This document shows positions 35,596 through 60,262 of a stretch of 64,000 bases of DNA, piece after piece. The notes under the pieces are model-generated. The model made no database searches, had not been told where the DNA came from, and saw only the letters and a program-made list of their open reading frames with translations. Source of the DNA: Naegleria gruberi (taxonomy: Eukaryota). The stretch lies in assembly GCA_000004985.1 (NCBI GenBank), contig GG738866.1. One strand, given 5' to 3'. Positions within the stretch are counted from its first letter, which is position 1; every line of letters starts with the position of its first letter. The position numbers and the translations under genes were made by a program.

Positions 35596-36957
35596 TTAAA
35601 AGAAGGAAATGGATGGGATATCATAGCAAACTCTAGAGGCAATTGAGCATTGGGAAGAAACAGTAGCAGAACCTGTTATAGCCAACAGTGAATCTACAAA
35701 GAATTGTTTGGCATGAGCAATATTATCAAATAATCTCGAATAGGTCTGTCCAGTATTACCCACTTGTCCAAATCTTGCATAGACTGTGAAAATGTTATCA
35801 TTTAGAGCATTGTTTTGAAGTTGAAGCATGAGGAATTTGTTATCATTTCCACAATTAATAAGAGCATTGAATGTACAAGATGAACGATCTTCATAGGTTT
35901 CTCTATAAATTCTTCCACCAATCCTCATAATAGTACAATATGGATCAGTCACTAGACTATATCGTGAATTATTAGTAACAATTAATGATGATGAAGAGGA
36001 AGTATTTTGAAGAAGGGAGAGTTTTTGCAATTTGCCCAAAAGAACACTACTTTCATCTAATACCAACTCTTCCCTATTGCCTGTGGACAATAAATCAAGC
36101 CAAGGACATTGATGAGTAGAGTGGTCATCATAGCAAACTGTTGTATTGTTATATGGAACGGAAGATTCTATAACATTACTCAAAAGGAAGGCAGAATTGC
36201 TGACAAAATTGATGGGAATGTTTTGATAGATTGGATTGGTCTTAGTTCTCTTAGTGTGTTGTTTGATTTGTTGTTCGTACAGTGTTGGTGAAGGATGATC
36301 CTTACGCTTTCTTCTCTGAAAATTGTTGACTTTGGAGCAATAATTGAGAGAAAAGTCTTTGAGTGGAATGGTCAAAGATGAAGATGAACAACTCTGAGTA
36401 AAGATTGGTTGATGGATAAGTGGTTGTTGTTGATGTTGAGGAAGTGTTAGGAGAGGTGTATCAAAGATGTGGTCTAATTCTTCGAGGAGAGCATTTGGTG
36501 ATGAAGGATCCATAACATGTTGATTTTCTGCACTTGTTGTTGCAACAGAATTACTAATGGTACTGGTTGTTGTTGTTGATGGTGTTGTATCAATTTGCTC
36601 TATCAACTTGCTATCTTCACTTTCAGTGGTACTTGTTGTTGGATGTACTTGCTCTAATTCTCGTACCAATTCTTCAACTTTATCCGCATCATCAGTTGTA
36701 TCAACTTCTTTTGTTTGGTTATTCTTACTCACTGCACCATCAACATCTTCAGTATTGTTGCCATTTGTTGTTGTCGTTGAAGTAGTAGGTTCATCAATTA
36801 CTGTTGTTGTTATTGGTGGTGGAGCAATACTATCTTGTTGAATCAAGTCCAAACCCTCAACCTCCAGAAATTCCTCTTCTTCTTCTTCCTCTACAGGAGA
36901 TGAGGGTATGATCAGAGAGGACTCATCGGCAATCTTAGTGTCGACGTGTTCTGGCAT
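35596..36957 (-). CDS. Acidic, Thr/Ser-rich protein (453 aa) with a C-terminal WGR-like domain
   Basis: ATG at 36957. The C-terminal NKFLMLQLQNNALNDNIFTVYARFGQVGNTGQTYSRLFDNIAHAKQFFVDSLLAITG aligns with the WGR domain pattern (Y.LQL...W.RWGRVG..GQ......A...F...F..KTG). The consensus was recalled from memory. Confidence 0.5.
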   Translation of the reverse strand: MPEHVDTKIADESSLIIPSSPVEEEEEEEFLEVEGLDLIQQDSIAPPPITTTVIDEPTTSTTTTNGNNTEDVDGAVSKNNQTKEVDTTDDADKVEELVRELEQVHPTTSTTESEDSKLIEQIDTTPSTTTTSTISNSVATTSAENQHVMDPSSPNALLEELDHIFDTPLLTLPQHQQQPLIHQPIFTQSCSSSSLTIPLKDFSLNYCSKVNNFQRRKRKDHPSPTLYEQQIKQHTKRTKTNPIYQNIPINFVSNSAFLLSNVIESSVPYNNTTVCYDDHSTHQCPWLDLLSTGNREELVLDESSVLLGKLQKLSLLQNTSSSSSLIVTNNSRYSLVTDPYCTIMRIGGRIYRETYEDRSSCTFNALINCGNDNKFLMLQLQNNALNDNIFTVYARFGQVGNTGQTYSRLFDNIAHAKQFFVDSLLAITGSATVSSQCSIASRVCYDIPSISFF

Positions 36958-37321
36958 TTATTTATGATAAAAAGATTTGGAATACGTTGAACCTCTCTTA
37001 TAAAACTACTAGTATGGCTTTTTTAAAATTATTAAATATAATTATTAATAATCAATCTCGAGAAACGTGTCTGATACGACGTCGTTTTGATCGAATAGAA
37101 ACTGATATTGTTCTATTTCACCATGTTCAGAGTAGCAATATGATAACGGTAATTTGTTTCTCGAGGCAAGTTTATGAATGACAAATAATCATATTACCTG
37201 ATTCACTAATTTTCCTTGTACATTGGATGATTAAAATCAAGATTCCATCCATTATAATCACTCATTAATTGCAATAACAACATTACGTGGTGTGTTTGTA
37301 GACAATAGACAACTCAAAAAA

Positions 37322-38399
37322 ATGTTTCGTCTACCTCTACAGGAAACATTTAAAACATCATCACTAACACATCAGAGATCATCTTTAGCACTGTTCCGGT
37401 GTTCATCTCTTTCTCAACATTATCAATACTCTAGAATTTTCATTTTCATATCACTTTTATTATTGTCATGTTTGTTATCTTCCATAAATTCTCAAGAGTT
37501 TACATTGAATCCTCTCGAGGGAAGAATATCTACCATGCAGTTCATAAACAGACGTACAGTTTATGTTCATACAGATAAATATGTTTATTTGAGTGCTGAC
37601 AAGGGTGTTCACTTTCAAAATTTTAATCAAAAGGCTAGAAATTGTCAAGAAGCAAAATGTATTCAAACCATTGCTAGACATCCTTTTGATGATAACGTAT
37701 TTATTTTAATTTCTAATTTGAAAAAGTTGTTTTACATTTGCACAGATCTCAATTCTGCCAATGAATTTGACATTGATAGAATTAATTGTGTAGAAAGACC
37801 ATTTCCAAATGATAATTCTGATGCTAAACAAGCTCCGATTGTGACCAAAGTAGTTTTCCATCCAAAAATTCATAACACTTTACTAGTTTTAATGAGTAAC
37901 AATAGATTGTATCTCAGTGAAACTTTGGCTAGTAATTTCTACTTTTTAAAGTCAGGTGTTAAACAAATTTCATTTGCAAATTCTGAATCAAAACTCTATT
38001 CCGATACTCTCTTGTTAGGTATCAAGGAAAGTGATGGAATTAGCTATTTTTTCAATATGGACAGTCGTTCTAGAAATGATGAGGATGATAATGAGATTAT
38101 TCGCCATGCTAGAGAATTCATGATGTATGGACCATTCCTTTTCGTTGCGACCATTGAGGAAGCAACAGAAAAATACCAAAAAGAAAAATACATGGCCAAA
38201 CTCTTTGTTGGTACTGATAATGGACGTTCTTTCAATAGAGTTTCAATCTCTCAATCCACTCAAAACCATATCATTGAAAAATCATTCATTATTTTGGATG
38301 GAAGCGAAGGTGCTGTATTGATTAATGTTCAACAAGAACAATCATCAGCTACTTCCTCATCTTCAACTTCTTCCAAGTATGGTAAAGTTTTCATTTCAG
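37322..38399 (+). CDS. Vps10-domain (sortilin-like) sorting receptor, exon 1
   Basis: The first ATG is at 37322 (the ORF-track start at 37292 is GTG). A signal/anchor segment IFIFISLLLLSCLLSS is present, with Asp-box-like SADKGVHF and GTDNGRSF. The exon ends ...KVFISG before GTAAGT at 38400. Confidence 0.7.
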
Positions 38400-38441
38400 G
38401 TAAGTTGATAATTTGAATATATAATACTTATATTCTTTTAG

Positions 38442-39949
38442 ATGCTCGTGGTGTCAGATATAAACAAACATTATGGGATAACAGAAGAGATGGCAATCAT
38501 GCTGATTTTACCAAAGTCAAATCATTGGAAGGTGTTTATCTTGCCAATCAAGTTCAAACCTATGATATGAATACTATGGAGTTGTACGAATGTAACAATT
38601 GTAATGGCTATGAAGATTGTACAAGGAAATGTAAAACTAAAACTCTCATTACCTTCGACAAGTCGGTTTGGAGATACATTACACCACCAAAGTATGGAGC
38701 CAATAAGGAGTTAATCAATTGTCCAAGTGGTAATTGCAAGTTGCACCTTCATGGATTTTCTGCTGGTACTAATCCAAACTATCCAAGACTTCATTCACAC
38801 AAGGATGCAGTTGGTATCATTTTCGCAAATGGTAATGTTGGAGAATATTTATGGGAAGGAGGAACTATCAATACTTACATGAGTAGAGACGGAGGATTGA
38901 GTTGGACTGAAGTGGCTAAAGGTTCTCATGTCTATGAAATTCTTGATCATGGTGGAATTATGATGATTGCTGAGAATAATAGACCAACTGATACACTCAG
39001 GTACAGTTTGGATGAGGCCAATACTTGGGTAACAACCAATTTCACAGAACATCTCAGAACCTATAGAATTAATAAGATGTATGCCAATGAAAAGTTTGAT
39101 CAATTGGCCAGATATGCTCTAATTCATGGTTCTGCTGATACATCAGGAGATATTGTCATTCGTGTTGATTTTTCCAAGGTTCACCAAAGGGAATGCACTG
39201 GTATCAACAATCCATACGACCAAAACAGTGACTATGAATATTTCAAACCACACAACTATAACTCCAAGTGCTTACTGGGTAGAGTTGTTGAGTATACCAG
39301 GAGAAAGAGAACTTCCATGTGTTTCAATCCAAGTCTCACTGAAGGAAAACCTGTCAAGATCACAAATTGTGAGTGTACATATGCTGACTATGAATGTGAC
39401 TATGGATATGAGAAGAAGAGAATTGATGATGTCAAATTTAGTTGTGTAGCAATCAATGCCAAATTGGAAGAGGAATCAAAGGCTCCATCTCTTTCCTCAT
39501 GCCAAACAGAAAATTACTATAATGAATCTAGAGGATATGCCAGAATTCCTGGAAATACTTGTAATGGAGGTTTGAGCAGTCAATTAGATCCTATTAAGAG
39601 AGATTGTCCAAAATCAATGAGTAATTGGGCTGTATTCATTATTGTTCTCTTCTTTGTTATGGTATTGACTTTTGGTGCATTGCTTTTCTACAAACAAAGT
39701 GGATTTTTACAACAATTATTCAATCCTAACAAGATGAGATATAGATACAATCAGCTCATCAATGATATGAATACCCCTGATACTGCATTCGGTCGAGACA
39801 TTGAGAGAAATCAACCATCATCCTTCCAAGACAACAGAATTCAATCCGATGACGAAGATGATGAAGATTTTGGCCTTGATGTTATTGAGGAAGAGGAAGA
39901 AGCACCAGAAGAAATGCATCCAGGTTCTTTTGGATCATCTAAACATTAA
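38442..39949 (+). CDS. Vps10-domain (sortilin-like) sorting receptor, exon 2 (remaining propeller and 10CC module, transmembrane segment, cytoplasmic tail); total about 861 aa
   Basis: The 42-bp intron (38400-38441) ends in ttttag and is in frame (phase 1). Asp-box motifs SRDGGLSWTEV and SLDEANTWVTT are present. The 10CC-type module reads ...CECTYADYECDYGYEKK...C...C. The transmembrane segment is WAVFIIVLFFVMVLTFGALLFY. The tail carries YNQL (Yxx-phi) and the acidic cluster SDDEDDEDFGLDVIEEEEE. Confidence 0.8.
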
Positions 39950-40145
39950 GCAGATCTGATAATAATAGATAGAAAAGTTCCGACATCCAATTCTTTATGT
40001 TCTACATGAGTGAACAAATTATTATTGAGCATGTTCGTTCAAGGAGAAAATGCACTGAACGAACATTACACACAATTAAATTCTCTATTTTTGTTACTCA
40101 GGGTTGGCGCCAATTTTACACACAAACACGCAAAAAAATAAGAAA

Positions 40146-43100
40146 ATGTCTTCCATATTTCACGTTCCAATCCTTATCCTTATTGTGCTTATTGCTTCAC
40201 AGTGGTGGTATTTAAATCAAGAAAGAACATTGAATCAATCATCATCACCAAATATCGATCTCGGCTTACTCTCAAAGGATTGTTCCTCTCAACTTGTTAA
40301 GAATTTCTACTTTGAGAAGGCTTTGAGCCAATATAAGGAAAAATGTCTTGTTGAAAAGAAGTGTGGTTCAGAATCATTAGAAGGTAGTGCTGAGAATGTA
40401 ATTAAGCAGATAGACGAATTAGTTTCCAATCAAAAAAAGCAAGCCTTGGAAAGAAGATGCAACAACCTTATTATTCATTCCGAAAATGTTCAAATTCTTC
40501 CAAAGCAAACAATTGTTGATCCAAAACTTGATGCAATTTGTGGTAATTCAACAGAATGCATTCAAACTGTTCATGAAATGATCATTTATCATCAGGCCTT
40601 TGCTTTTGCAGTTCAAAAGCTAAAGTTGGATCAAGAAAGTGTTAAGAGATTTTTACAATTACAAATCACCAATCTTGGAGAGAAGGCAAATTCAATTTTG
40701 GAATTTATCAGAAATCCTCAAGGTATTGAGGGTCCATCTGGTTTTTCCATTTCCTTGAAGCCAACACATTCCAGCCATCACTCATTCATCCAATCAGTTT
40801 TTTATGGTTTGATGGCATTGGCTTTGGGATGGTTGTATTTAATGTTCTGTACATTTGTTCAAGTAGAAGATGATTACTCGAAGAAAATGGCAGAGGCAAC
40901 TAGAGAGACAGATGAATTGAAAAAGAAATTGAAAGAGGCAACAGTAAAGGTTCTCGAAAAAGTTAAAGAACTCAATACTGAAAAGGAAAAATTAGAGCAA
41001 GATCTTTCAGATGAAAAGCAAACTTCAACAACATTGACAAGCGAGAAAAATCTACTAGAAAATGACCTTTCAACAATGACGACCAAGAAGAATCAATTAG
41101 AAAACGATTTAGCAAACGAAAAAAAATCTACAACATCATTGAGAACTCAAAAGAAAGAAATCGAGGACAAGCTTGAAAAATCCAAGAAGGAATACCAAGA
41201 CACTCTCAATAAGAAAGACAATGAACTAAAGAATACCAATGAAAAATTGAAAGTTGTGGAGAATGAGAATAAGCAATTCAAGAAGGATTTGGATACTAAG
41301 AGCAAGGATATTACCAACTTGGACAATTCGCTGAAGAAATCTAAGGAGCAAATTGCAGAACTTGAAAAATTGCATGCCCAACTAAAAAATGAAAAAGAAC
41401 AAACATTAAGAGATCTTTCGAATTGTAAACTCAGACTTGAAAAGGAGAATGAATTATGTTCTGCTCAACTCAAAAAGCTTGAACAAGAAATCAATAACCA
41501 AATCAATGATATGAAGCAAGTCGTCCAATCAAAGGTAGTATTAGAAAAACAACTCAAGAAAGTTGAGGAAATGCACAGTGAATTGAAGAGTGAGAAGGAC
41601 TTGCAGACCGAAGAATTTTCAAAAGAAAAGGAAAGATTGCTGGGAGAAATGAAGAATTTAGAAAATGAAGTAAAGAAACAAGCAAAGATTTGTGAAATAG
41701 AAAAGATCAACACTGAACTCTCTGAACAAATTCAACAATTATCATCTGAAAGAGATGCTATTCAAAACGCACTTAATGATGAAACTCAAAGATTAAACGG
41801 CCAAACAGAAAAGATCAGAAATGTATTGGTAGAGATCTCAACATTGAAGAATACAAATGAAGAACTTGAAGAAAAAATCAAATCTTTGGAGGAGGAAAGA
41901 TCAAACAAGGACCAAAGTATTGAATTTTTGCAAGAAGAAAGCAAGGTTCTATCTGAAACTGTTACAACACTTGAAACCAAATTGCAAGATATACATACAG
42001 AAGTTGAAGATATAAAGAAGCAATTGGAAGAAGTTGCATCTCTAAAGAAGCAATTGGGAGACAAGAAAATTGAATTGCAACAAATTAATGATGGCTTGAA
42101 TAATTTAGCTGTCCAACACCAAAAGGAATTGGAAAAAGAAAAACAAAAGATTGAAGAGTACGAAAGAACTATTACTGAACTCAAAAATTTACTTTCCGAA
42201 ATGAATAATGAGTTGATGGAAGACAAGTCAATAGAATTAGAGGCAGAACTGAAAGTTGTAAAGGAGTCTAACAGCAAGCTTTTGAAATGCATGGAAGAAA
42301 GAGATGAACAGATAACTAGCCTAGAGGAAGAAATTAAGGGTTTGAAGTCTCAAACCGAAACTCTTTCTGAAGAGGCAAAGAACTTGAAAGAATCATTGAA
42401 AGAAAAGGATAATGAAGTTGTGATATTGACAGAATTAGTGAAATCTGAAGATCAACTTTTGCAAGTTGACCAGGCTGAAATTAACAATTTGAGTAGTATT
42501 GTTAATCAAGCAGATGAAGGAATTACTTATCTTAAAAACGATTTGAATACTATTAGAACTGTTCTTGCTAGCACTGAAGAAAAGCTTAATAAGTCTGTAA
42601 AGGAGAAGGAAAGAATCTATGATGAATATGAAACTGTTCAAAGGGATGTAAAGAGATTAACAGAAGAAAAGCTTGAAATGGAGAAGGAAATCCAAATGTT
42701 AAAGCAAAGAAGCCCTCGTACATTCAAATCTTCACCATCAAGGGAGAAGGAAGAAAATAGGCGATTGAAGGAGAAGATTGAATTATTGGAAAAGAAACTC
42801 AAGTTATCTTTGAAAAAGATTCCATCTGATCAAAATCTCATCAACAACCTACCAATCATCAATACAACAGCTACCACGCCTTCCAGTTCTTCAACAAGTA
42901 CTTCACCAAGCACTGAACAGGATAAGGATGAATTAATCAAACGATTGAAGGAAAAGCTTGAAATTAAGGAAAACAAATTGAAGGCTGCCATTGTGAGTAA
43001 GCTTGAAGTTGTTGAAAGACTCAAAAACTATGAAGCAGATGCTCACTTCAGCACAGCTTCTGTTGGACCTGGAGCTAATCAACCACATCAGCAACCACAA

Positions 43101-43154
43101 CAACCAGTACAACAGAAAGTGGCAACTCCAAGAAATAACAAGAAGAATTTGTAA
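40146..43154 (+). CDS. Coiled-coil protein (about 1003 aa) with two transmembrane segments and a Cys-containing lumenal N-terminal domain; paralogue of the 54190-63034 gene
   Basis: The first ATG is at 40146 (MSSIFHVPILILIVLIASQWWY...; the ORF-track start at 40104 is TTG). A second hydrophobic segment VFYGLMALALGWLYLMFCTF is followed by about 750 aa of heptad-rich coiled coil. It shares the unit KQAKICEIEKINTELSEQIQQLSSERDAIQ with the minus-strand gene. Confidence 0.75.
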   Translation: MSSIFHVPILILIVLIASQWWYLNQERTLNQSSSPNIDLGLLSKDCSSQLVKNFYFEKALSQYKEKCLVEKKCGSESLEGSAENVIKQIDELVSNQKKQALERRCNNLIIHSENVQILPKQTIVDPKLDAICGNSTECIQTVHEMIIYHQAFAFAVQKLKLDQESVKRFLQLQITNLGEKANSILEFIRNPQGIEGPSGFSISLKPTHSSHHSFIQSVFYGLMALALGWLYLMFCTFVQVEDDYSKKMAEATRETDELKKKLKEATVKVLEKVKELNTEKEKLEQDLSDEKQTSTTLTSEKNLLENDLSTMTTKKNQLENDLANEKKSTTSLRTQKKEIEDKLEKSKKEYQDTLNKKDNELKNTNEKLKVVENENKQFKKDLDTKSKDITNLDNSLKKSKEQIAELEKLHAQLKNEKEQTLRDLSNCKLRLEKENELCSAQLKKLEQEINNQINDMKQVVQSKVVLEKQLKKVEEMHSELKSEKDLQTEEFSKEKERLLGEMKNLENEVKKQAKICEIEKINTELSEQIQQLSSERDAIQNALNDETQRLNGQTEKIRNVLVEISTLKNTNEELEEKIKSLEEERSNKDQSIEFLQEESKVLSETVTTLETKLQDIHTEVEDIKKQLEEVASLKKQLGDKKIELQQINDGLNNLAVQHQKELEKEKQKIEEYERTITELKNLLSEMNNELMEDKSIELEAELKVVKESNSKLLKCMEERDEQITSLEEEIKGLKSQTETLSEEAKNLKESLKEKDNEVVILTELVKSEDQLLQVDQAEINNLSSIVNQADEGITYLKNDLNTIRTVLASTEEKLNKSVKEKERIYDEYETVQRDVKRLTEEKLEMEKEIQMLKQRSPRTFKSSPSREKEENRRLKEKIELLEKKLKLSLKKIPSDQNLINNLPIINTTATTPSSSSTSTSPSTEQDKDELIKRLKEKLEIKENKLKAAIVSKLEVVERLKNYEADAHFSTASVGPGANQPHQQPQQPVQQKVATPRNNKKNL

Positions 43155-43327: not shown

Positions 43328-43936
43328 ATGGCACTCTCCTATCAAACTGCAACAGAATACATAGCCTCACCAATGTATAGGAAGGCTTCATCAATGCCTG
43401 AATACTTTGATACAGACAGTGAAAATAAGGAGGAAATTACACAAGACCCATTCGAAAACATTATCAATAATACCATTGATGAGGAAGAAGATGATTGCTC
43501 CGATCCATTCTCGGAAGTAGACGAATTTCTTGATAACGAATCTGATCCATTCACAATATCTGATATTGATCCCTTCTTGTTGAAAGATGTTGATCCATTC
43601 CTTGTAGATGACAGAGATCCATTTTATGAAGTTGATGAATTTGATGAGGATGAGGTGGATCCATTTCTTGTGGAAGATACTGACGTTTTTAAGGCTAACT
43701 CATTATTGGATGCTGGAGTAGTGACAGATCCTTTCTTGGCAGAGCATGGAGTTAAATGTTTTGAGGAATATGATGGAGATGATCCATTCTTAATAGAAGA
43801 TGAAGAATATGATGAGAAGGAAATGCATTCTAAAGAAGAGAGCAGAAGTATCTTTGAGTTGGTTTTTACCCTTCACAATTTAGGCTTACTTTGTTTGATG
43901 GTTGCTTTATTAATTCTTTTGGTCAACCACAAATAG
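43328..43936 (+). CDS. Small acidic tail-anchored protein (202 aa) with nine DPF motifs
   Basis: ATG at 43328. The motifs are QDPFENI, SDPFSEV, SDPFTIS, IDPFLLK, VDPFLVD, RDPFYEV, VDPFLVE, TDPFLAE and DDPFLIE. The extreme C-terminal hydrophobic segment is IFELVFTLHNLGLLCLMVALLILLVNHK. Confidence 0.65.
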   Translation: MALSYQTATEYIASPMYRKASSMPEYFDTDSENKEEITQDPFENIINNTIDEEEDDCSDPFSEVDEFLDNESDPFTISDIDPFLLKDVDPFLVDDRDPFYEVDEFDEDEVDPFLVEDTDVFKANSLLDAGVVTDPFLAEHGVKCFEEYDGDDPFLIEDEEYDEKEMHSKEESRSIFELVFTLHNLGLLCLMVALLILLVNHK

Positions 43937-45426: not shown

Positions 45427-45834
45427 ATGTATAATCTAGAACAATTAGAACAACTTTCACTCTACGTGATGAGAAGGTTTGGAGAGTATTTCCAAGTCGT
45501 CTCAGCCTTTTCCAAAATTAATAACAACAACTCGGATAAGATTGAACAAATCAGAGGAAGAATTAACGAACAACGTGAATTGTTGGATACATTAAAGAAG
45601 GACGTTGAAATCAATAGGAACAAGTACTCGGAATCAGAAATCAAAGCCTTTGAAATTGAAATTGAGAAGAGTGAGAAGAGGCTAGCCAAGCAAGTTGAAA
45701 TTCTTCATCAATACGAAAATCAAGTTGATACAATGCATCATACGACATTTAATTTGAGTTTTAAATTAATTGTACAGGTGATCATTGCTCTAACTGTTTT
45801 GGCGTTAATGTTTTATATGGTGTTTTTTTGGTAG
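45427..45834 (+). CDS. Small tail-anchored coiled-coil protein (135 aa), with a SNARE-like topology but no clear SNARE motif
   Basis: ATG at 45427. A heptad-rich region is followed by the C-terminal transmembrane segment LIVQVIIALTVLALMFYMVFFW at the extreme C-terminus. Confidence 0.45.
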   Translation: MYNLEQLEQLSLYVMRRFGEYFQVVSAFSKINNNNSDKIEQIRGRINEQRELLDTLKKDVEINRNKYSESEIKAFEIEIEKSEKRLAKQVEILHQYENQVDTMHHTTFNLSFKLIVQVIIALTVLALMFYMVFFW

Positions 45835-46190: not shown

Positions 46191-49100
46191 ATGAAACAGT
46201 TACTCTCACCGAAATCTATATTACTTTTTATAATACTATCTATAGCTTCTATTGGATGGATGGTTATTGGCCAAGAGTTGCCCTACTCTTCATCATGGTC
46301 AATTACCAACTCGAATATTCAAACATGTAATACTATACGTGGTCAACAGGATGATTACTTTTATATGGGAGGTAAATTCAGTGGCAGTATTGATACAAGT
46401 GCTATAGGAGTCATATCTCCCGATAGATTTAATAACTCTGTAGTTTTGGCAACATCATTAACGAGTGAGGCGTATGCACTTAAGGTTCAAAAGTCAACTG
46501 GTAAGGTTGACTCATCTATTCAATTTGCACCAAGTGGCAATACAGAAACGATTCAAAGTTCAGAAATTATTTCAATAGGAACGAGTACTCAATTTCAAAT
46601 ATTTGCAGGAATTATCAATACAAATCAAGGAATTTTCATTTCAAAGTTTAACACCAATGGAATGGAATGGACACAAACCTATTTATTTTCGAGTGGAAAT
46701 TACATTACAGTGAGAGATTCAAAAGTGGTTGATACGAGTATTGTCATTGTAGGAACATACAGAGGAGACATTTCCATTAGTAATGGTTCAATTGCTCTCA
46801 CTTCATCCTCGAGTCAAGATTACGAAAACATGTTCATTGCTATTTTGGATATGACTGGATCTATTCAATATATCTATACTAATAATGGTAATAATGCTAA
46901 AGTCATACCACAGAATTTGCACTTGTCTTCAAATGGTGAATTTTGCTATGTTATGGGAGTTTTCAGCGGATCAACTTTGTCATTCACCAAATCCACTAGC
47001 TCATCAGAACAGCTAACTCTCACTTCAACAACTTCTACAGATCAGTACGATTTATTCCATCTCAAATATTCCATCACTAGTAAGGAGTTGGTTTGGCTCA
47101 TGGGCACTACAGGACCTCATCAGATGGACTATTCATACAAGATTGTTGGCAGCTCACCTTCGACCATTTATGCCTTCAGGGATATTATCATTGATCAGGG
47201 ATATAGTGAAAGCAGTGATTGTGGCAGCCAAACAGATGTTCCTATTGCAACTCTGACAAGGAATTTATTCACACTTCTCTCATCGAATGTTCTCTTTGGT
47301 GGAGCATCAGCCACAGGTTCTCAGAGTTTGAGCTTTTTCAAAGCTTTGGATTTTGCAGGATTTTCCAATTCAATTCTCTTCGATAATGGAACTACTTCAT
47401 CTGTTATGAACATTTCCAGATCGACACCACTAACTCTCTCTTCGACAGGATTTACTACCTGTCCTAACAAACAAGCTCTGATGAACTATTCCACAGAGTA
47501 TACATTGAATTATGCCAGTGGTTCCGAGACTATCCTTCTCAAATCCTATGTGAGCATACCAAAGTTATTGTTCACTTCCAATTACAATGTTGGTGTAATT
47601 AATTATGCTGGTATTACATCCACTTTGACATTTAACATGCCAAGTACACTGCTGAGTGTTATCGATAAGAATCTGGTTGTTGATGTTGGTGGAACGAAAA
47701 GGCCAGTGAAGAATTCCAATAATGTCTATACGGCAGACTTGTTTTCAACCACTGTAGGATGGAATAATATCACTATTTATTTCAATAATACTGCTCAGAA
47801 CAGGTATGATTTGATTTCTATGAATTCTGTCAAGACTTTCTTCTTTGATGATTCTTTGGTTATCAGTATTCAGAATAGTACAATTTTATTCAATAGCAGT
47901 ACTTTGAATAATGGTAGAGGTACACTAACATTGACAGGATTATTGAATTCCACGTATAATTTCCCACAGGAATATGTCAGCTCTATTATGTGTAGAGTGG
48001 CTCAACAAAATTTTGCTACCAATATTGATGGTAATCAGATTACATGTCAAAATGTTCCATTTTCAGAGAGGAACACGACAGTAGTACTTGTCTATAGATA
48101 CAGCAACTCTATTTTCTATAACATTTCAAGAAGTTTGGATTTGAGTTTTATTGAAACACGGACACTTACAACTTCTTCACAATACAGGGTGATTACAACA
48201 GATGAGCAAACCAAGGGATCGTTTGCTTTGTCTTTAACAATCGGTAAAACAATGGGCTCTTTGGATGTCAAATTGCAAGCAACAAATCAAAATGGAGCTG
48301 CTTCTTATTTACCATTTACAGTTTCATCAGGTACAAGTATTTCTGCAACCTTGGCAGTGGCTCAATTTGAAAAGGCAAATTTGAAATTTATGGTAAAATC
48401 TCAGAATGACTATGTGGATTTTACCAACACAATTTCTATTCAATTCTTGAAGCAAGTCAAGTTTACATCCTTGTCGAGTACCATTGATAATTCGAGACAA
48501 ATGAAGACCGCATTCAGTATTCAACCAAACCTGATAGATTCATTGAAATCTCAGCTAACTTGCCAATATAATGAGAGTCCAACATTGAGAACTGCTTTGA
48601 ATAGTACTGATAATACATGTAATATTGACAATCGATTCCTTTCCACAAACAATACTCTCCAATTATTGCTTAATATGGGAAATAATGTTTATTTACAAAT
48701 ATCAGACAGTATTTCATTGACATCTCCCTCACTACCAACAATATCCTTCCTATTTACTCCTAATTTTGGTATCAGTGGATTTACTAATATTACAACCGAA
48801 ATTACATCTCAAGATTTGATATTTGAACAATTGAAAAGAAATTTACAAATAGAAATTAATTCCATTCGTTATACACCAACTGTTGGGTCAGATGGAAAGG
48901 TTTCATTTCCACTTGTAACCTCAGTAGCCGGCTGGAATAATTTGACAGTTCTTGGAAAATATTCAACCAATGACACTTCATACTCTGTGATCAGCACTCA
49001 GAGTAAGATTTATTTCTTTAATACTCCACAAACAAATATTTTCACTTTCCCTAATGGAAATATCACACTCCTCACTCCATCCAGCAGTAGAAATTTCATG

Positions 49101-52100
49101 ATTGACTTGGTATTGAGTTCTCCCTTTGATATTCCTTATACCTTACTGAGTCCAAACAACTTTTTCTGTAACATATTTGGAGAGTCATATAGTGCCCAAT
49201 TTGTTTCCAGTACCAGAGTTCAATGTCAAAATGTAGTAAGCAGAGAAGGTGAAACTGATTCTTTTATCACAACTTCTATTCGAAATACCACATTTGAAAT
49301 ATCTTCGAGAAGTCTGTTCACCTTTGTTAAAACAAGAGAAATCAAACCTGTTGGAGTGTCTCTCATTCAATCTACTGATTTTTATATTGGAACATTGCCT
49401 CAAACACAAGCAACCTATTCGTTGCAGATTAATATTGAAGATAGCTTGTTCACTGCTCTACAAATTGAAAATACTCAAAAACTTGCTATTCAACTTACTG
49501 ATCTGCTAACCAATCAGAAACAAGTCAGATTCCCACAAATTACCAGAGGATTAAACATGTCTACTCTTTCACTCAACTTGGACGTTGCCACTTCCCAGTC
49601 CATTTTCAAATATGAAATTAGAGTATTGTTTAAAGGACTGGAGATTTCTCAAGTTGCATTAAAGTATCTTCTTGTGAGAGAATCACCAATTGGAAAGGTA
49701 ATTTCCTCCAGAGATTCCACTGATAATTTACTCATCAACATGCCAAGAATTTTATCAACAGCAACTTCAATTAGTGACGATGAAAAGTTAATTATGGACA
49801 GAGTGTACTGCTCTCTTGGAGATTCAACTCTTTCCAAGGTTACCTATTCTGTGAGTGGTGGTATTCAATGTAAATTTGCAACTGATTTCACATCAACACA
49901 AACCAAATCAGTTCAACTCTTCATGTCCATCAATACTGTGGCCACAAATAGTTCAGTTATCAAAATATCCTCCAACTCACAACAAGCATATCCAATCTAT
50001 TGTTATTCAATTCCTCACTATTTACCAACTGTTTGTTCTTCAAAGGGAACTTGTAAGCAAACTGATAACTGTACATGTACCAACAATTTCCAAGGAAATG
50101 ATTGCAGTTTCACCCAATGTTTTGGAATTGCATCCACTGATAAGACTGTCTGCAGTGGATACGGTCAGTGTCCAACCTCAAATAATTGTGTTTGTAATGC
50201 AGGATTTAGTGGCACAAGATGTGAAAATAAGGTCATGTATGTTTCTGAGGACAAATCATGGCTATCCACCAGTGAATCTATGAGCAGTTTACCAAGATCG
50301 CAACTCTCTGCTCTAATAGAAACAGAGAGTTTGTCCAAAGTTGAATGTGCATCTTTATTAGCAACTGCATCTATTGATACCATTGGAGTTGATGCATTTT
50401 GTTTTGTGAACTCTGTTGATATTGTAATCATGTTGAACAGGAACGTTATGAACAATACTGTATTACTATCTTCCTCGACTATTGGTAGCATCCTTTCGAA
50501 ATCATTTTCACAATATCAAGTGCTTGACACTAAAGGAAAGTCAACCAGTCCAGAAATTCTATTAAGAACTAGTTTCTCAAGTGTGAATTTCCCTGCTGTG
50601 GTTGAACCGCTCATTGTCACTGCATCACCTCTCTCAAATTTAGGTCTATCATGGCAAAGTGATGATCCAACTATTAACAGTCAACTTTCTTCATTTGCCA
50701 ATCAGTCAATTATCAAACTGAATTTAGGAGCAAAAACAAGACAAAATGTAATTTCTAATGGAGCTGTTAATTTGGTTTTGCAAGTTGCCGATTCAACATT
50801 CAATACTTTGACCAAATATTCCACTAAATTGCTTTTGAATCAATCTTCCAACTCTGGAGAAGCAATATTCAATTATGGAGGATCTCAAATTGAATGCCAA
50901 TCCTTTGCCTCATGTGATATTGCCTTTAGTGTTGCTCCTATTAAGGGGTCTTCTATTAGGTCATCTTTCAATCCTGACATTGGAAATATAACTACAAACT
51001 ACATTCATAATTTGAAAAGTTTTGCAGAGGGTTGTTCTACTGTATATTCCCTGCGTAGCAGTGAGAGCAAACAACTGTGTATTAAGATTAGAGATAAGGG
51101 TGTTATTCAATACTATTTGGATGTCAATACTCAACAAGATAATTCCATTGTAGTCACTTTGAGTCAATTCAACACTTCCTCTAAAGTATATTCAATTATT
51201 ACCAGTTCTAACTCTGATATTATACAATTGATTAATTTGAATACTAACACTTCTGTGCAAGGCGCGAAGGATGGAAGTAGTTCAGCAGTATATTTCAAGG
51301 GAATCAAAGAGCAAGAACCATACGAGATTAGATTTACTAGTTCATTAGGAAAGGCCTCCCTCAAGATTCAATATTCCACAAGTATGCAACTCAAGCTCTT
51401 AACATTCATTCCTAAAGTAATGGGAAGAAAATCTTCATTGATATTGTCTTCTCTGGTTGACTCTGATAGCAGCACAGTTCAACAAGTTGATTTCCTGTTA
51501 ACAAAGAAAGGCCAATCACAATCCACGTCTCTTCCAATAGTTCAACAATATAATGATCTGACCTTTTCACAAGCCCTGTTGAATGCTTCACTTTTAGATA
51601 GTGGATCTTTCTACATTCTGAGAGTTCAATCAAGGAATGCTAAAGGACATGTAACCTATATTGAACAATCTTTCTATGTACAATTAGAACCAAACTATAA
51701 TATCAATTGTGCTATTACTCCAAAAGAAGGAATTGCTTATGAAACAGAATTTACAATTTCATGTTTATCCAATAATTTAGATTTAGATACTTATCAATTC
51801 CTCATAACGAATGGTACTCATCAATTAGAGCTTTCCAAAGGAAGAAAGAGAGCATTCTTTACTAGAATTGGATTTTTACAAAATGCCAAACTTCAAGTCA
51901 AAACTAATGATGTTTGGAATAGTGAAAAGACAACAGAGTTCCCAATCCAACTCAAACATCCAAAACAAGTTTATCAAACATCTTTAGAATTTTATCAATA
52001 TTTAACAAGAAAAGTTCAGGATCTTCTCAATGAAGAAGTTTCTCCAAACAGTTTAGGATTTGATTATGTCAACAGTGTCATCACCTTCATGTCAATTCTT

Positions 52101-54182
52101 GGTGCTGACTCGAGTATTGTACCAAATTATGAATATAGAACAGAGTTGGGTTTGAGCTTGCTGGATATATTCGAAAAAGTCGTTGGCTATGCTAAACAGA
52201 ATAAGGATTCTACGTATATTGGAAGAAGTTTACCGATAATGAATCAATTCTTGCAACAATTTTCAAATACCACACAAACAAATAGAGATAGAGTCTATGG
52301 ACTGATCAACTCTACGTTGGATATATTACAAGACTTTTCATCAACTAATCCAAGTAGTAGTATTAATGATATATTTACTATTGTTGACAGAATTATTCCA
52401 CTAGTAGCAACTGATTTACAAACTCAATTATTCAACAAATTGAGAATAGTTAATCAACAGAATTTGTTTGGAAAGATGAAGAATGGTTATTTGGTTTCAA
52501 ACTTCTCCAAACTTTCCAATACTACTCTTGAAAATTATCAAATCATTAACTTGAATGTGTTGGGAAGAAAAATTTCAGAGCCAATCAATCTCGGTACACT
52601 TTCACTCAATCTTCCTTCACAAATTAGTTCAGATTCTTTGAATTCTCTATTTGAAGTGAGTGCTCTAATTTATCAAACCAAATCCAAAACAAGTAGAACA
52701 TTACAACAAGCTACCTCTATTCCTAATGTACAAGTTGCACTAACGAAGAATTCCATTCCACTTACCGATTCTTCACTAAATGTCAACATTACCTTCCCAA
52801 TCCAATTGAATAGTAAGACAAGAGCCCAATGTAGATCATTTTCCTTCCAGGAAGAACCAAAGAATCACACAACATTCCAATCCGAATCAGCAGTGGTATG
52901 CTTAGTGGCACTCTCAGATTTGAATAGAAACTTGTATATTTATACCTATGAAGGTATTTTTATAGGACCACTGCCACAAAATAGTGATAATGTGAAAGGT
53001 CCACTTCTTCAGGATAACACCTTGACCATAGCTTTGGCCACCATTTTGTCAACTGTTGGTTTGATATTTATATGCTGTTCACTCCTGGTATTGTTGTTCA
53101 TTATTGGAAAATGTAGAGGAAGAGGAAAGAAGGAAAATACACCAAATATGACAGAGTTTACCTATAAGGCATCTGGATCTCATTCTCCAATTGGAATTTC
53201 AGATCATTCTTCATCTGATAAGAATTCTGATACTTCATCAGAAAAACAACAAACTGAAAAGAATATCAATCAACGAGTGACTGAGAATGTTGAGCTATTG
53301 AATGGACAATATCAATTATTAGAAACCATTTCCATTCACTCCAACTATACTCTCTATAGAGCTAATAATATTAGTACAGGTCAGGTTGTGTGTATTAAGA
53401 AGATTGGATTTTCTTCTTTTGAGGAAATTAATTCATCATCCTCTGTTATTGTGAAAGAGTATACGAACATGTCTCGTACTCAACATGCTAATATTGTCAA
53501 GTTACACGAGGTGTTTGTTGATACAAGTCTTAAGGCAGTTTGTTTAGCTCTTGAATATTTCGAGCTTGGAAATTTGAATGAATTACTACTCAAGCGAATT
53601 CAACAAAACCAAATATTTGATGAGATTCATATTGGTCAGATATTGTATCAACTTTCCCAAGCTCTTTCGTATCTTCATGATGAATGTGGATTGTGTCACA
53701 GGAATATCAGGTTGGAAAACATATTTGTAAGACAATTTACACCACAAAAAATTGATATTTGTTTGGGTGAATTTACAGATTCGAGATCCAGAAACTCACT
53801 CAAAATAGAACATGATGTGCAAGACCAATCGTTTGGATCTGCTATAAGTTCTTATAAGTTTGGTAATTTTACCAAAGCTGTGAAGGAAAATGCAATCAAA
53901 TCTACCAGTGACCAGTTTACGTCTGAAGATACATTCCAGGTTGCGTGTGTAATGTACAAACTAATGTCGTTTGATATGGAGAGTAAGGTCAATTCATTAT
54001 TTGAGGAGTATGAGTTTGAAAAAGACGTATTCACATTGCTAGAATCAAGGATACACTCATCATATTCTAGTGAAATAGTTTCCATCATCTTGTCAATGTT
54101 TGCTCGAGAAGAAAAAAATCGTCCAACAATGAACCAAGTCACCAATTTATTGGGCAATGTATTCAAGTTTGAAACACAATAA
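46191..54182 (+). CDS. Receptor-like transmembrane pseudokinase (2663 aa). It has a signal peptide, a ~2250-aa Ser/Thr-rich ectodomain with two CFG-type EGF-like modules, one transmembrane segment and a cytoplasmic kinase-like domain with degenerate catalytic motifs.
   Basis: The N-terminus MKQLLSPKSILLFIILSIASIGWMVIGQ is a signal peptide. EGF modules lie near 50000-50230 (CSSKGTCKQTDNCTCTNNFQGNDCSFTQCFGIASTDKTVCSGYGQCPTSNNCVCNAGFSGTRC). The transmembrane segment is IALATILSTVGLIFICCSLLVLLFIIG. The kinase-like domain has VVCIKKI (VAIK-like), HANIVKLHE, YLHDECGLCHRNIRLENIFV (HRD changed to HRN), ICLGEFTDS in place of DFG, no GxGxxG loop, DTFQVACVMYKLM and NRPT. Confidence 0.8.
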   Translation: MKQLLSPKSILLFIILSIASIGWMVIGQELPYSSSWSITNSNIQTCNTIRGQQDDYFYMGGKFSGSIDTSAIGVISPDRFNNSVVLATSLTSEAYALKVQKSTGKVDSSIQFAPSGNTETIQSSEIISIGTSTQFQIFAGIINTNQGIFISKFNTNGMEWTQTYLFSSGNYITVRDSKVVDTSIVIVGTYRGDISISNGSIALTSSSSQDYENMFIAILDMTGSIQYIYTNNGNNAKVIPQNLHLSSNGEFCYVMGVFSGSTLSFTKSTSSSEQLTLTSTTSTDQYDLFHLKYSITSKELVWLMGTTGPHQMDYSYKIVGSSPSTIYAFRDIIIDQGYSESSDCGSQTDVPIATLTRNLFTLLSSNVLFGGASATGSQSLSFFKALDFAGFSNSILFDNGTTSSVMNISRSTPLTLSSTGFTTCPNKQALMNYSTEYTLNYASGSETILLKSYVSIPKLLFTSNYNVGVINYAGITSTLTFNMPSTLLSVIDKNLVVDVGGTKRPVKNSNNVYTADLFSTTVGWNNITIYFNNTAQNRYDLISMNSVKTFFFDDSLVISIQNSTILFNSSTLNNGRGTLTLTGLLNSTYNFPQEYVSSIMCRVAQQNFATNIDGNQITCQNVPFSERNTTVVLVYRYSNSIFYNISRSLDLSFIETRTLTTSSQYRVITTDEQTKGSFALSLTIGKTMGSLDVKLQATNQNGAASYLPFTVSSGTSISATLAVAQFEKANLKFMVKSQNDYVDFTNTISIQFLKQVKFTSLSSTIDNSRQMKTAFSIQPNLIDSLKSQLTCQYNESPTLRTALNSTDNTCNIDNRFLSTNNTLQLLLNMGNNVYLQISDSISLTSPSLPTISFLFTPNFGISGFTNITTEITSQDLIFEQLKRNLQIEINSIRYTPTVGSDGKVSFPLVTSVAGWNNLTVLGKYSTNDTSYSVISTQSKIYFFNTPQTNIFTFPNGNITLLTPSSSRNFMIDLVLSSPFDIPYTLLSPNNFFCNIFGESYSAQFVSSTRVQCQNVVSREGETDSFITTSIRNTTFEISSRSLFTFVKTREIKPVGVSLIQSTDFYIGTLPQTQATYSLQINIEDSLFTALQIENTQKLAIQLTDLLTNQKQVRFPQITRGLNMSTLSLNLDVATSQSIFKYEIRVLFKGLEISQVALKYLLVRESPIGKVISSRDSTDNLLINMPRILSTATSISDDEKLIMDRVYCSLGDSTLSKVTYSVSGGIQCKFATDFTSTQTKSVQLFMSINTVATNSSVIKISSNSQQAYPIYCYSIPHYLPTVCSSKGTCKQTDNCTCTNNFQGNDCSFTQCFGIASTDKTVCSGYGQCPTSNNCVCNAGFSGTRCENKVMYVSEDKSWLSTSESMSSLPRSQLSALIETESLSKVECASLLATASIDTIGVDAFCFVNSVDIVIMLNRNVMNNTVLLSSSTIGSILSKSFSQYQVLDTKGKSTSPEILLRTSFSSVNFPAVVEPLIVTASPLSNLGLSWQSDDPTINSQLSSFANQSIIKLNLGAKTRQNVISNGAVNLVLQVADSTFNTLTKYSTKLLLNQSSNSGEAIFNYGGSQIECQSFASCDIAFSVAPIKGSSIRSSFNPDIGNITTNYIHNLKSFAEGCSTVYSLRSSESKQLCIKIRDKGVIQYYLDVNTQQDNSIVVTLSQFNTSSKVYSIITSSNSDIIQLINLNTNTSVQGAKDGSSSAVYFKGIKEQEPYEIRFTSSLGKASLKIQYSTSMQLKLLTFIPKVMGRKSSLILSSLVDSDSSTVQQVDFLLTKKGQSQSTSLPIVQQYNDLTFSQALLNASLLDSGSFYILRVQSRNAKGHVTYIEQSFYVQLEPNYNINCAITPKEGIAYETEFTISCLSNNLDLDTYQFLITNGTHQLELSKGRKRAFFTRIGFLQNAKLQVKTNDVWNSEKTTEFPIQLKHPKQVYQTSLEFYQYLTRKVQDLLNEEVSPNSLGFDYVNSVITFMSILGADSSIVPNYEYRTELGLSLLDIFEKVVGYAKQNKDSTYIGRSLPIMNQFLQQFSNTTQTNRDRVYGLINSTLDILQDFSSTNPSSSINDIFTIVDRIIPLVATDLQTQLFNKLRIVNQQNLFGKMKNGYLVSNFSKLSNTTLENYQIINLNVLGRKISEPINLGTLSLNLPSQISSDSLNSLFEVSALIYQTKSKTSRTLQQATSIPNVQVALTKNSIPLTDSSLNVNITFPIQLNSKTRAQCRSFSFQEEPKNHTTFQSESAVVCLVALSDLNRNLYIYTYEGIFIGPLPQNSDNVKGPLLQDNTLTIALATILSTVGLIFICCSLLVLLFIIGKCRGRGKKENTPNMTEFTYKASGSHSPIGISDHSSSDKNSDTSSEKQQTEKNINQRVTENVELLNGQYQLLETISIHSNYTLYRANNISTGQVVCIKKIGFSSFEEINSSSSVIVKEYTNMSRTQHANIVKLHEVFVDTSLKAVCLALEYFELGNLNELLLKRIQQNQIFDEIHIGQILYQLSQALSYLHDECGLCHRNIRLENIFVRQFTPQKIDICLGEFTDSRSRNSLKIEHDVQDQSFGSAISSYKFGNFTKAVKENAIKSTSDQFTSEDTFQVACVMYKLMSFDMESKVNSLFEEYEFEKDVFTLLESRIHSSYSSEIVSIILSMFAREEKNRPTMNQVTNLLGNVFKFETQ

Positions 54183-60000: not shown

Positions 60001-60262
60001 TGTCCTTTTCTGTATTTAATTGAGATATATATTGATCCAACATAGTCTTCTGTTGTTCAACATTGTTAATGCTTTCCTTCAACTCTTGGTTGGAGGATTC
60101 AAGGTTGGCTATCATTAATTGTTTGTTTTTTGATACTTGAATTTCGTCGTTGAGCGTGAATTGAATGGCATCTCTTTCAGATGATAATTGTTGAATTTGT
60201 TTTGATAGCTCAGTGTTGATCTTTTCTATTTCACAAATCTTTGCTTGTTTCTCTTGAGTCAT
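56987..60262 (-). CDS. Giant coiled-coil gene, segment 3 of 4 (1091 aa, internally duplicated)
   Basis: This segment starts with an ATG (60262) created exactly at the frame change (MTQEKQAKICEIEKINTEL...). It contains duplicated ~1 kb and ~2 kb units. Confidence 0.55.
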   Translation of the reverse strand: MTQEKQAKICEIEKINTELSKQIQQLSSERDAIQFTLNDEIQVSKNKQLMIANLESSNQELKESINNVEQQKTMLDQYISQLNTEKDNLQQANYETITGLEKDLTQIKTQNIELANNLESKQLDLLEQQSRIKQLENKIIDLSGEKKTQKEVMENEKTRLSKEILDKSKEADLLTKDKAEIQTTCNTQEKKIKVLQDVMNTQKEQLKENASKIKQLESEKSKLLEEVKYLGKTINTLKYELKDATMNVKKQTDKVKELEKSISILKESEKNLNNDKKSLESDREQIIRQLEDARNELEQNKNRYDDCVLKLKESITVLEKENEKKSEEFSKEKDRLLEEMKNLENEVKKEKEIAEEKQAKICEIEKINTELSEQIQQLSSERDAIQKSLNNEIQLSKEQQSIMENLLETSTKELKERISNTETACNAKDKSIKVLQDLLNTQKEQLKESAKETISQISLIKQLESEKSNLTDNIRQNEDLLLKLSDDNQALSTANNQLEKENTRISQELQNIQYGFRKEKELSNQLASSNITLLDKLKHLEDTVQNLTKCNQELETVVNNLRENVRQGEIKLASVINDKQQEDDNRQRTLEDLGQTINNLESQFKDATNNLEMYKDKVKELERALETLQESEQNLKKDIEEIIRQLEDAKNELEQNKNKYGDCVLKLEESINVLENENEKKSEEFSKEKERLLEEMRKLEDEVKKEKAIVEEKQAKICELSEQIQQLSSERNVIQETLTKEIQTSKEKQSFIENLESSNQELKESINNVEQQKTMLDQYISQLNTEKYNLERTTSEAITRLSKEILDKSKEADLLTKDKEETQIMCNTQEKKIKVLQDVMNTQKEQLKENAKEVNSHNSKIKQLESEKSKLLEEVKYLGKTIDTLKYELKDATMNAKKQTDKVKELEKSISILKESEKNLNNDKKKLESDRVVLQEKLDILKIGLLKEETLRANAEERFNEAENTSVELKQRAQQDTLCIEDLKKQVQVLEQHNLDLEAKKLALSEKQEEIIRQLEDTKNELEKARQEMEQNKNKYDNCVLKLEETINVLEKENEKKSEEFSKEKERLLEEMRKLEDEGKENCRRETSKDL
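57460..60250 (-). repeat. Nested tandem segmental duplications inside the coiled-coil gene, with units of about 1.1 kb and about 1.96 kb
   Basis: Positions 57487-57875 and 59443-59805 are more than 95% identical. Positions 57880-58100 match 59990-60200. The ctttacttcatcctccaacttcctcatttcttccaacag block recurs at about 57030, 58150 and 59220. Confidence 0.75.

Follow-up and report, generated by a model that had tools for sequence, protein, structure and literature searches.

Nearly all known arrays of the tripeptide Asp-Pro-Phe (DPF) belong to soluble scaffold proteins of animal and fungal endocytosis, and the literature on 'DPF repeat' concerns Eps15 and Eps15R essentially exclusively. In the Eps15 array, single DPF motifs bind the AP-2 alpha appendages by avidity, and close tandem DPF motifs bind the mu-homology domains of muniscins (PMC4921775, PMC4731787). 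Here we analyze a small protein of Naegleria gruberi that carries nine DPF motifs in front of a C-terminal hydrophobic segment. Its gene, at positions 43328..43936 (+), lies in a stretch of 64,000 nucleotides of contig GG738866.1 (assembly GCA_000004985.1), which we refer to as the window.

The alpha appendage of AP-2 recognizes a single DPF with a dissociation constant of ~200 uM, and through avidity the binding increases linearly with the number of motifs, irrespective of their spacing (PMC4921775). For the mu-homology domain of SGIP1/FCHo, DPF motifs joined by linkers of 2-3 residues form a high-affinity site (PMC4731787, PMC4921775), and a consecutive pair separated by 5 residues makes up a site of low affinity (PMC4731787). 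Every D, P and F contributes to binding by this domain (PMC4731787, PMC4921775), and substitution of the proline severely reduces it (PMC4731787). Beyond the AP-2 appendages, DPF readers include the mu-homology domain of muniscins and TSET, and EH domains (PMC4731787, PMC4921775, PMC2238750, PMC12370899); the latter can read DPF as well as other phenylalanine motifs (PMC2238750, PMC12370899). All six subunits of TSET occur in N. gruberi, where the mu-homology domain of the subunit TCUP is homologous to that of the muniscins (PMC4031984).

The DPF-array gene, its product and its orthologues

A first reading of this DNA from its letters alone (the sequence-only reading) had described a 202-residue acidic protein with nine DPF motifs, and this is exactly what the frame encodes. 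The isoelectric point is 4.05, D and E make up 29% of the residues (26-29% across the orthologues described below), and all nine motifs are present, at residues 40, 59, 73, 81, 89, 97, 111, 134 and 152. Three further D-x-F motifs (DEF65, DEF103 and DVF119) bring the total to 12, so that 12 of the 16 phenylalanines of the protein lie within a D-x-F. To call the protein 'made almost entirely of DPF motifs' was an overstatement, as the array covers residues 40-154, or ~57% of its length. Chance does not account for this excess: when the residues of the protein were shuffled 100,000 times, nine DPF were never reached (the maximum was 4). Elsewhere in the 64 kb, no open frame of 80 aa or more contains even two.

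Successive D-x-F motifs are spaced 19, 6, 8, 8, 8, 8, 6, 8, 8, 15 and 18 residues apart. The motif phenylalanine is often followed by L-[VIL]-[DE] (DPFLV, DPFLI, DPFLL, DPFLA), a context that recurs in all species. Tandem Repeats Finder detected no tandem DNA repeat under the array apart from a 27-nt blip of period 9, and a recent expansion of a DNA repeat was rejected on this ground. Because a tandem repeat is absent at the DNA level, we consider the array to be old and maintained.

The only Kyte-Doolittle windows in the protein that score above 1.4 start at residues 174-184, with a best 20-residue mean of 2.42; the same scan, run over the whole protein, identified no N-terminal hydrophobic segment or signal peptide. 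Equivalent C-terminal hydrophobic segments are found in the orthologues P0044 and P0002. The orthologues end in 'RN' and 'RVI', and 0-3 residues follow the helix across the three proteins. The single C-terminal hydrophobic segment of the sequence-only reading is thus borne out, but it does not follow the array 'directly', as the two are separated by ~20 residues.

AlphaFold2, run on a three-sequence alignment, yielded a predicted template modeling score (pTM) of 0.18 and one confident helix, at residues 171-201. The block-mean predicted local distance difference test (pLDDT) score is above 90 over residues 181-200 and 46-59 over residues 1-170 (about 46-57 in the array). On this model residues 1-170 (~170 aa) are predicted to be an acidic, intrinsically disordered region, in which the N-terminal segment forms weak helices at residues 5-12 and 15-20 (pLDDT ~55). 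One transmembrane segment within ~30 residues of the C-terminus and none elsewhere defines a tail-anchored protein, and this is what we found in the N. gruberi protein and in both orthologues. By the standard topology rule, the disordered acidic domain of such a tail-anchored protein would face the cytosol.

The family is small. A single-sequence, word-indexed search of 5.8 billion proteins returned only a strain variant and the 221-aa protein C9374_003881 of N. lovaniensis. Only one more, P0044 (188 aa, E = 8e-19), encoded on a metagenome contig from ENA (L002), emerged when a profile of two sequences was run exhaustively with HMMER against 1.84 billion cluster representatives. A three-sequence profile retrieved no further relative from the 5.8-billion set, and none of 600 pattern matches in a scan of JGI metagenome contigs was confirmed. 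The DPF-array protein matched no Pfam family, and a PDB profile search gave no match at E <= 10. As far as the searched databases show, the family appears confined to Naegleria or very close relatives. The protein-database searches returned no orthologue from N. fowleri; its sister species N. lovaniensis has one, and in N. fowleri the gene would be either lost or unannotated.

The three proteins (N. gruberi, P0044, N. lovaniensis) share 31-48% pairwise identity. Conservation of motif number among orthologues, proposed as a check by the sequence-only reading, holds: D-x-F occurs 12, 11 and 13 times, respectively, at collinear positions, and 9, 7 and 6 of these are DPF. In P0044 the spacings are 13, 7, 8, 8, 8, 6, 8, 8, 15 and 19, collinear with N. 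gruberi. Five DPF motifs are invariant in all three species (N. gruberi 73, 81, 89, 111 and 152), including the first three of the core run (Table 1). Several other orthologous motif sites keep the D and the F and replace the proline with M, V, E, L or I (DMF, DVF, DEF, DLF, DIF), and the residues between motifs vary among the species while the motifs hold. The N-terminal segment is nearly identical in P0044 (YQTASQYLSSPAYRKYSSIPEYFDD), with the shared pattern YQTA[TS].Y..SP.YRK.SS.PEYFD, and is partly kept in N. lovaniensis.

The gene is closely flanked on both sides. Upstream, a gene for a 1016-aa coiled-coil protein ends 173 nt from the DPF-array gene; downstream, at a distance of 145 nt, is the end of a BTB-domain gene that runs on the opposite strand, in a tail-to-tail arrangement. 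A BTB gene (31-33% identity) also lies tail-to-tail with the gene for P0044, which supports orthology. The neighbors in N. lovaniensis (L003) encode a V-ATPase G subunit, a LETM1-like protein, VID27 and a teneurin-type EGF protein, the last of these at L003 1..822.

The frame at 43328..43936 is a complete single-exon coding sequence of 202 codons plus stop, and its start ATG is preceded by an in-frame stop 6 codons upstream. An exact-sequence cluster look-up identified it as NAEGRDRAFT_48877 (XP_002677531.1, EFC44787.1, D2VEE6), annotated as 'predicted protein'. The GC content of the window (34.7%) and its Vps10/sortilin match, split over two open reading frames, likewise fit a Naegleria chromosome. 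The literature searched names NAEGRDRAFT_48877 in no paper, the gene was not found in the accessible part of the supplements of an N. gruberi organelle-proteomics paper (PMC8134430), and the metagenome project PRJEB11402 likewise appears in no paper. With a codon model trained on the long open reading frames of the window, the annotated frame scored a log-likelihood of +0.345 per codon, more than any of four genes held out for comparison; both of the remaining sense frames came out strongly negative. Between N. gruberi and the orthologue on L002, the rates of non-synonymous (dN) and synonymous (dS) substitution are 0.43 and 1.8, with dS near saturation and a dN/dS of ~0.24, and the gene is under purifying selection.

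A second metagenome contig (L001) represents another strain of N. gruberi, for which 1775 nt were compared. The coding sequence of the DPF-array gene has no substitutions and one in-frame deletion of 3 nt, at 43466..43468, which removes one Asn (Asn47) of 'IINNT'. In the upstream spacer of 173 nt there are 3 substitutions and 2 indels without codon constraint, and the BTB gene has 6 substitutions. We conclude that 43328..43936 is a genuine protein-coding gene which, as far as the searched databases show, is restricted to Naegleria. That the protein has the architecture listed in Table 1, and that its D-x-F motifs matter for function, we consider very probable.

Table 1. Features of the DPF-array gene product and their positions in the window.
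Feature	Position	Strand	Residues	Sequence	Remarks
Conserved N-terminal segment	43337..43411	+	4-28	YQTATEYIASPMYRKASSMPEYFDT	includes FFAT-like 'EYFDT'
Acidic disordered array (predicted), 12 D-x-F (9 DPF, 2 DEF, 1 DVF)	43445..43789	+	40-154		mostly 8-residue spacing
Core run, four consecutive DPF with 5-residue linkers	43544..43624	+	73-99	DPFTISDIDPFLLKDVDPFLVDDRDPF	
Tail-anchor transmembrane helix (predicted)	43859..43924	+	178-199	LVFTLHNLGLLCLMVALLILLV	Kyte-Doolittle and AlphaFold2
Putative three-residue lumenal tail	43925..43933	+		N-H-K	net charge ~+1; read from sequence

Candidate readers of the array and alternative functions

We propose, tentatively, that the array is a docking platform, tethered to a membrane, multivalent and of low affinity, to which a trafficking module with a pocket for phenylalanine would bind. 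The tail anchor would be inserted post-translationally, probably first into the endoplasmic reticulum (ER) through the GET pathway. The disordered region would then lie in the cytosol, and the many weak motifs on a membrane would generate avidity. Candidate readers, in order of likelihood, would be the AP-2 alpha and beta2 appendages, the mu-homology domain of TSET (TCUP) and EH domains. Either coat and accessory proteins would be concentrated on the host membrane, or the protein itself would be an efficiently captured cargo. We offer this coat-adaptor reading of the array as possible rather than probable, with the readers named as candidates only.

A regular-expression scan for classical linear motifs was performed on all three orthologues, and DP[FW] was the only classical trafficking motif present. 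Ligands of the AP-2 appendages are recognized by multiple DP[FW] in a disordered region; here 9, 7 and 6 DPF are found, in a region (residues 1-170) with a pLDDT of ~50. To judge from the motif pattern, the array best fits the mode in which AP-2 engages many single DPFs. DPF-x5-DPF occurs 3, 2 and 1 times across the three species, with one pair conserved in all of them, and DPF-x(2,3)-DPF occurs in none of the three. The conserved pair matches only the low-affinity class of sites for the mu-homology domain.

In the three orthologues NPF, FxDxF, WxxF, clathrin box and W-box had 0 matches, the gamma-ear motif FG[PDE][FLMW], the delta-COP W-motif and the KLC W-acidic motif were absent, and there was no conserved YxxPhi. 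Matches to [DE]xxxL[LI] and DxxLL were isolated, overlapped DPF motifs and were not common to all three species. An LC3-interacting region (LIR), the Atg8-binding motif of receptors for organelle autophagy, was considered and rejected. By eye, F-x-x-[LIV] can be read in DPFENI, DPFSEV and DPFYEV of N. gruberi, but it is not conserved: the orthologous sites are DPFEKP, a deletion, and DMFDEI/DVFDAA, and the acidic-preceded core [WFY]-x-x-[LIV] had 0 matches in the three species.

Several observations weigh against a docking platform for coat adaptors. The companion features of endocytic proteins (NPF, clathrin box, FxDxF/WxxF, lipid-binding or EH domains) are absent from the DPF-array protein, which has no Pfam domain. 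The proline is replaced at several orthologous motif sites, a departure from the DP[FW] rule, and the recurrent context DPF-L-[VIL]-[DE], which appendage ligands are not known to have, points to a longer motif that something else would read. The linkers of 5 residues do not match the 2-3-residue spacing of high-affinity muniscin sites. An anchor of 19-22 residues with a tail of 0-3 residues suggests an ER or early-secretory address and not the plasma membrane, the site of AP-2; at such a short, ER-like anchor neither AP-2 nor TSET would act. Lastly, AP-2, TSET and EH proteins are pan-eukaryotic, whereas the DPF-array protein appears, in the databases searched, only in Naegleria.

A longer motif of the approximate form [DE]-x-D-[P/x]-F-[L]-[VIL]-[DE], with a reader unrelated to clathrin adaptors, is somewhat unlikely. 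Hydrophobic residues at +1/+2 and acidic residues at +3/+4 recur in all species, and the proline is not strictly kept. The partner may be a Naegleria-specific protein or a factor for contact sites or organelle positioning; the family is lineage-restricted, as a lineage-specific partnership would predict, and the anchor would be ER- or organelle-like and not plasma-membrane-like. A concrete, if weak, version is an organelle-ER tether, in which motifs resembling FFAT (two phenylalanines in an acidic tract, consensus EFFDAxE, in wider form E-[FY]-[FY]-D-[small]-x-[acidic] after an acidic tract), namely 'EFLDN/EFLED' and 'EYFDT', would be bound by VAP. EFL[DE][ND] follows acidic residues once in each orthologue (EFLDN, EFLDN, EFLED) and EYFD[TD] is found in two of the three species (EYFDT/EYFDD), both with non-canonical positions 3 and 5. 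However, where FFAT has a small residue at position 5, N or D is found here, and no more than 1-2 of the 12 motifs conform. Moreover, no candidate reader of the longer motif can be named, and it is precisely D, P and F that show the strictest conservation.

It is improbable that the protein is a sorted cargo or a regulator and no recruiter, with the array acting as a high-avidity signal for internalization or retrieval, or as a membrane sink that sequesters adaptors. The motif data are those that favor a docking platform, the avidity of DPF arrays for AP-2 is established (PMC4921775), and nothing suggests an activity of the protein itself (no Pfam family, no PDB relative, a disordered model). 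As a cargo, the tail-anchored protein may cycle either via the plasma membrane or via the contractile vacuole. Nevertheless, the known cargo signals (YxxPhi, [DE]xxxL[LI]) bind the core of the adaptor and not its appendages, and a cargo without a lumenal or a functional cytosolic domain has no obvious purpose.

A bolder form of the docking platform, which strikes us as quite improbable, is that the protein is a dedicated tail-anchored 'coat nucleator', whose array of about 12 weak ligands of appendages or mu-homology domains seeds the assembly of AP-2, TSET or clathrin on one membrane (contractile vacuole or endosomal, for example) by protein avidity alone, without the usual coincidence detection of phosphoinositides or Arf. 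If true, such a seeding array would be the natural counterpart of experiments in which a ligand is artificially anchored to a membrane and the adaptor follows.

The acidity of the proteins (26-29% D+E, isoelectric point 4.05) and their full disorder would also be consistent with motifs that have no specific reader, in a generic acidic 'bristle' that acts as an electrostatic or steric spacer, a low-affinity cation (Ca2+) buffer or a Tom22-like receptor of the mitochondrial outer membrane. We regard this as very improbable, since phenylalanine is kept at 11-13 collinear sites, each time two positions behind an Asp, while the stretches in between drift, and composition does not explain the presence of 12 of 16 phenylalanines in D-x-F. 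In Tom22 the membrane segment contains a conserved proline, and ~30 C-terminal residues form a domain in the intermembrane space. A Tom22-like receptor was rejected, as proline is absent from residues 171-199 and only 3 residues extend past the helix.

Hardly credible, finally, is a chance open reading frame or an annotation artifact, for which the bare label 'predicted protein' and the fact that no expression evidence was obtained might speak, but against which stand the start, frame, length, N-terminal block, array and tail anchor common to three species, the dN/dS of ~0.24, the strongly frame-specific codon usage, a strain difference within the coding sequence that consists solely of an in-frame codon deletion between flanks with substitutions and out-of-frame indels, and the BTB neighbor kept tail-to-tail on L002.

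Other genes in the window

The sequence-only reading had counted three genes with hallmarks of sorting motifs within 40 kb. The other two, a DFG-array protein and a sortilin match, are indeed present, but their clustering is not supported, as the neighbors in N. lovaniensis are unrelated. A conserved 'sorting cluster' was rejected: no sortilin lies within +/-6 kb of the N. lovaniensis orthologue, and only the BTB gene is shared, with the metagenome contig alone. Because the N. lovaniensis neighbors are unrelated and genes for trafficking proteins are common in eukaryotic genomes, we attach no significance to the co-occurrence.

The DFG-array protein (5372..10228, +) is an acidic low-complexity protein of 1618 aa with 18 DFG motifs, mostly 'DEDFGDFP' or 'DDDFGEFP'. 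DFGDF/DFGEF is the classical form of ligands of the AP-1 gamma-ear and GGA-GAE domains, and the array suggests that Naegleria uses the canonical ear-ligand grammar. In addition, 'DDWLS' and 'DSW' recur in the protein, 'DLFEFF' lies at its C-terminus, and a Pfam match to YBL010C/LAA2 stays below threshold (E = 2.6e-4, 21.6 bits, the cut-off being 24.7). By these features it is probably an aftiphilin/Laa2-like accessory protein of AP-1.

The Vps10/sortilin match is split over two open reading frames, 37292..38416 (positions 2-252 of the Sortilin-Vps10 profile) and 38525..39949 (positions 275-444 plus Sortilin_C), both on the plus strand, which implies one intron of ~108 nt. For the second frame, the closest relative that bears a name comes from Paramecium, with only ~36% identity. 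The upstream neighbor of the DPF-array gene, the coiled-coil gene at 40104..43154 (+), has weak ERM-helical and KASH-coiled-coil matches and hydrophobic segments at the N-terminus and near residue 250; no counterpart was detectable upstream of the orthologues on L002 or L003. Another predicted tail-anchored protein, of 135 aa, is encoded 1.5 kb downstream of the DPF-array gene (45427..45834, +), with a predicted coiled coil followed by the C-terminal hydrophobic LIVQVIIALTVLALMFYMVFFW. It has no significant Pfam family and could be a divergent SNARE-like protein or a tethering subunit.

Three frames on the plus strand encode teneurin-type EGF arrays, at 10358..14602 (1414 aa), 14457..20696 (2079 aa) and 46191..54182 (2663 aa). 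Of these, the first and second lie in different frames, overlap each other and could be a single gene joined by an intron, and the third ends in a protein kinase domain and looks like a receptor kinase. A pair of genes related to poly(ADP-ribose), 19..1332 (-) and 35596..36957 (-), encodes a PARG (catalytic domains, E = 3e-28) and a protein with a WGR domain. Four consecutive open reading frames at 54190..63034 (-), of 947, 1091, 468 and 466 aa, have no Pfam match and an AT skew of -0.27 to -0.36; they probably belong to a single giant gene of low complexity, broken up by introns or frame changes.

Comparison with known systems

The C-terminal domain of Eps15/Eps15R (13-15 DPF) resembles the Naegleria array in being a long, disordered, acidic stretch with DPF motifs a few residues apart. 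There is no sequence homology between the two, as neither the protein-database nor the PDB profile searches returned Eps15. The soluble Eps15 contains EH domains, a coiled coil and ubiquitin-interacting motifs, all of them missing from the Naegleria protein, which is anchored in a membrane. Between the motifs, the residues are hydrophobic or acidic (L-V-D-D) in Naegleria and rich in G, S and T in Eps15, the linkers have 5 residues as opposed to 2-3, and in the Naegleria orthologues the proline can be replaced.

The DPW array of epsin and the DxF array of AP180 likewise present multiple D-[P/x]-[FW] motifs in an unstructured region. A generalized 'DxF/W' rule, which reportedly goes back to work of Owen in 1999 and Brett in 2002, would cover the DEF, DVF and DMF variants. 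Epsin and AP180, however, have lipid-binding ENTH/ANTH domains, clathrin boxes and NPF, of which the Naegleria protein has none, and its attachment to the membrane is by a tail anchor instead of a lipid-binding domain.

Tail-anchored proteins are a topological class and not a homologous family. With the clients of GET/TRC40 the Naegleria protein shares a single C-terminal helix, the lack of an N-terminal signal and, by prediction, a cytosolic N-terminal domain; its own tail has at most 3 residues. In the literature searched we found no known tail-anchored protein with a DPF array, no paper that joins 'DPF', 'tail-anchored' and 'appendage', and none that joins 'Naegleria', 'AP-2', 'clathrin' and 'DPF'.

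If the array binds adaptors, the appendage-ligand grammar would predate the divergence of Discoba and opisthokonts, Naegleria being a deep-branching excavate, and would be usable in a membrane-anchored form. One small protein would then be a handle on the recruitment of AP-2 or TSET in Naegleria. If the reader is something else, the protein would define a new, extended acidic-Phe motif.

The closest conceptual analogues known to us are the SCAMPs, a conserved eukaryotic family with four transmembrane helices and about three cytosolic NPF motifs that bind EH-domain proteins. They are embedded in the membrane and display a repeated x-P-F motif to the cytosol, as the Naegleria protein is predicted to do. 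Unlike them, the Naegleria protein is single-pass and tail-anchored, has 9 DPF and 12 DxF and no NPF, and is found in Naegleria only. To our knowledge, a tail-anchored DPF/DxF array has not been described before, and it appears to combine known elements in a new arrangement.

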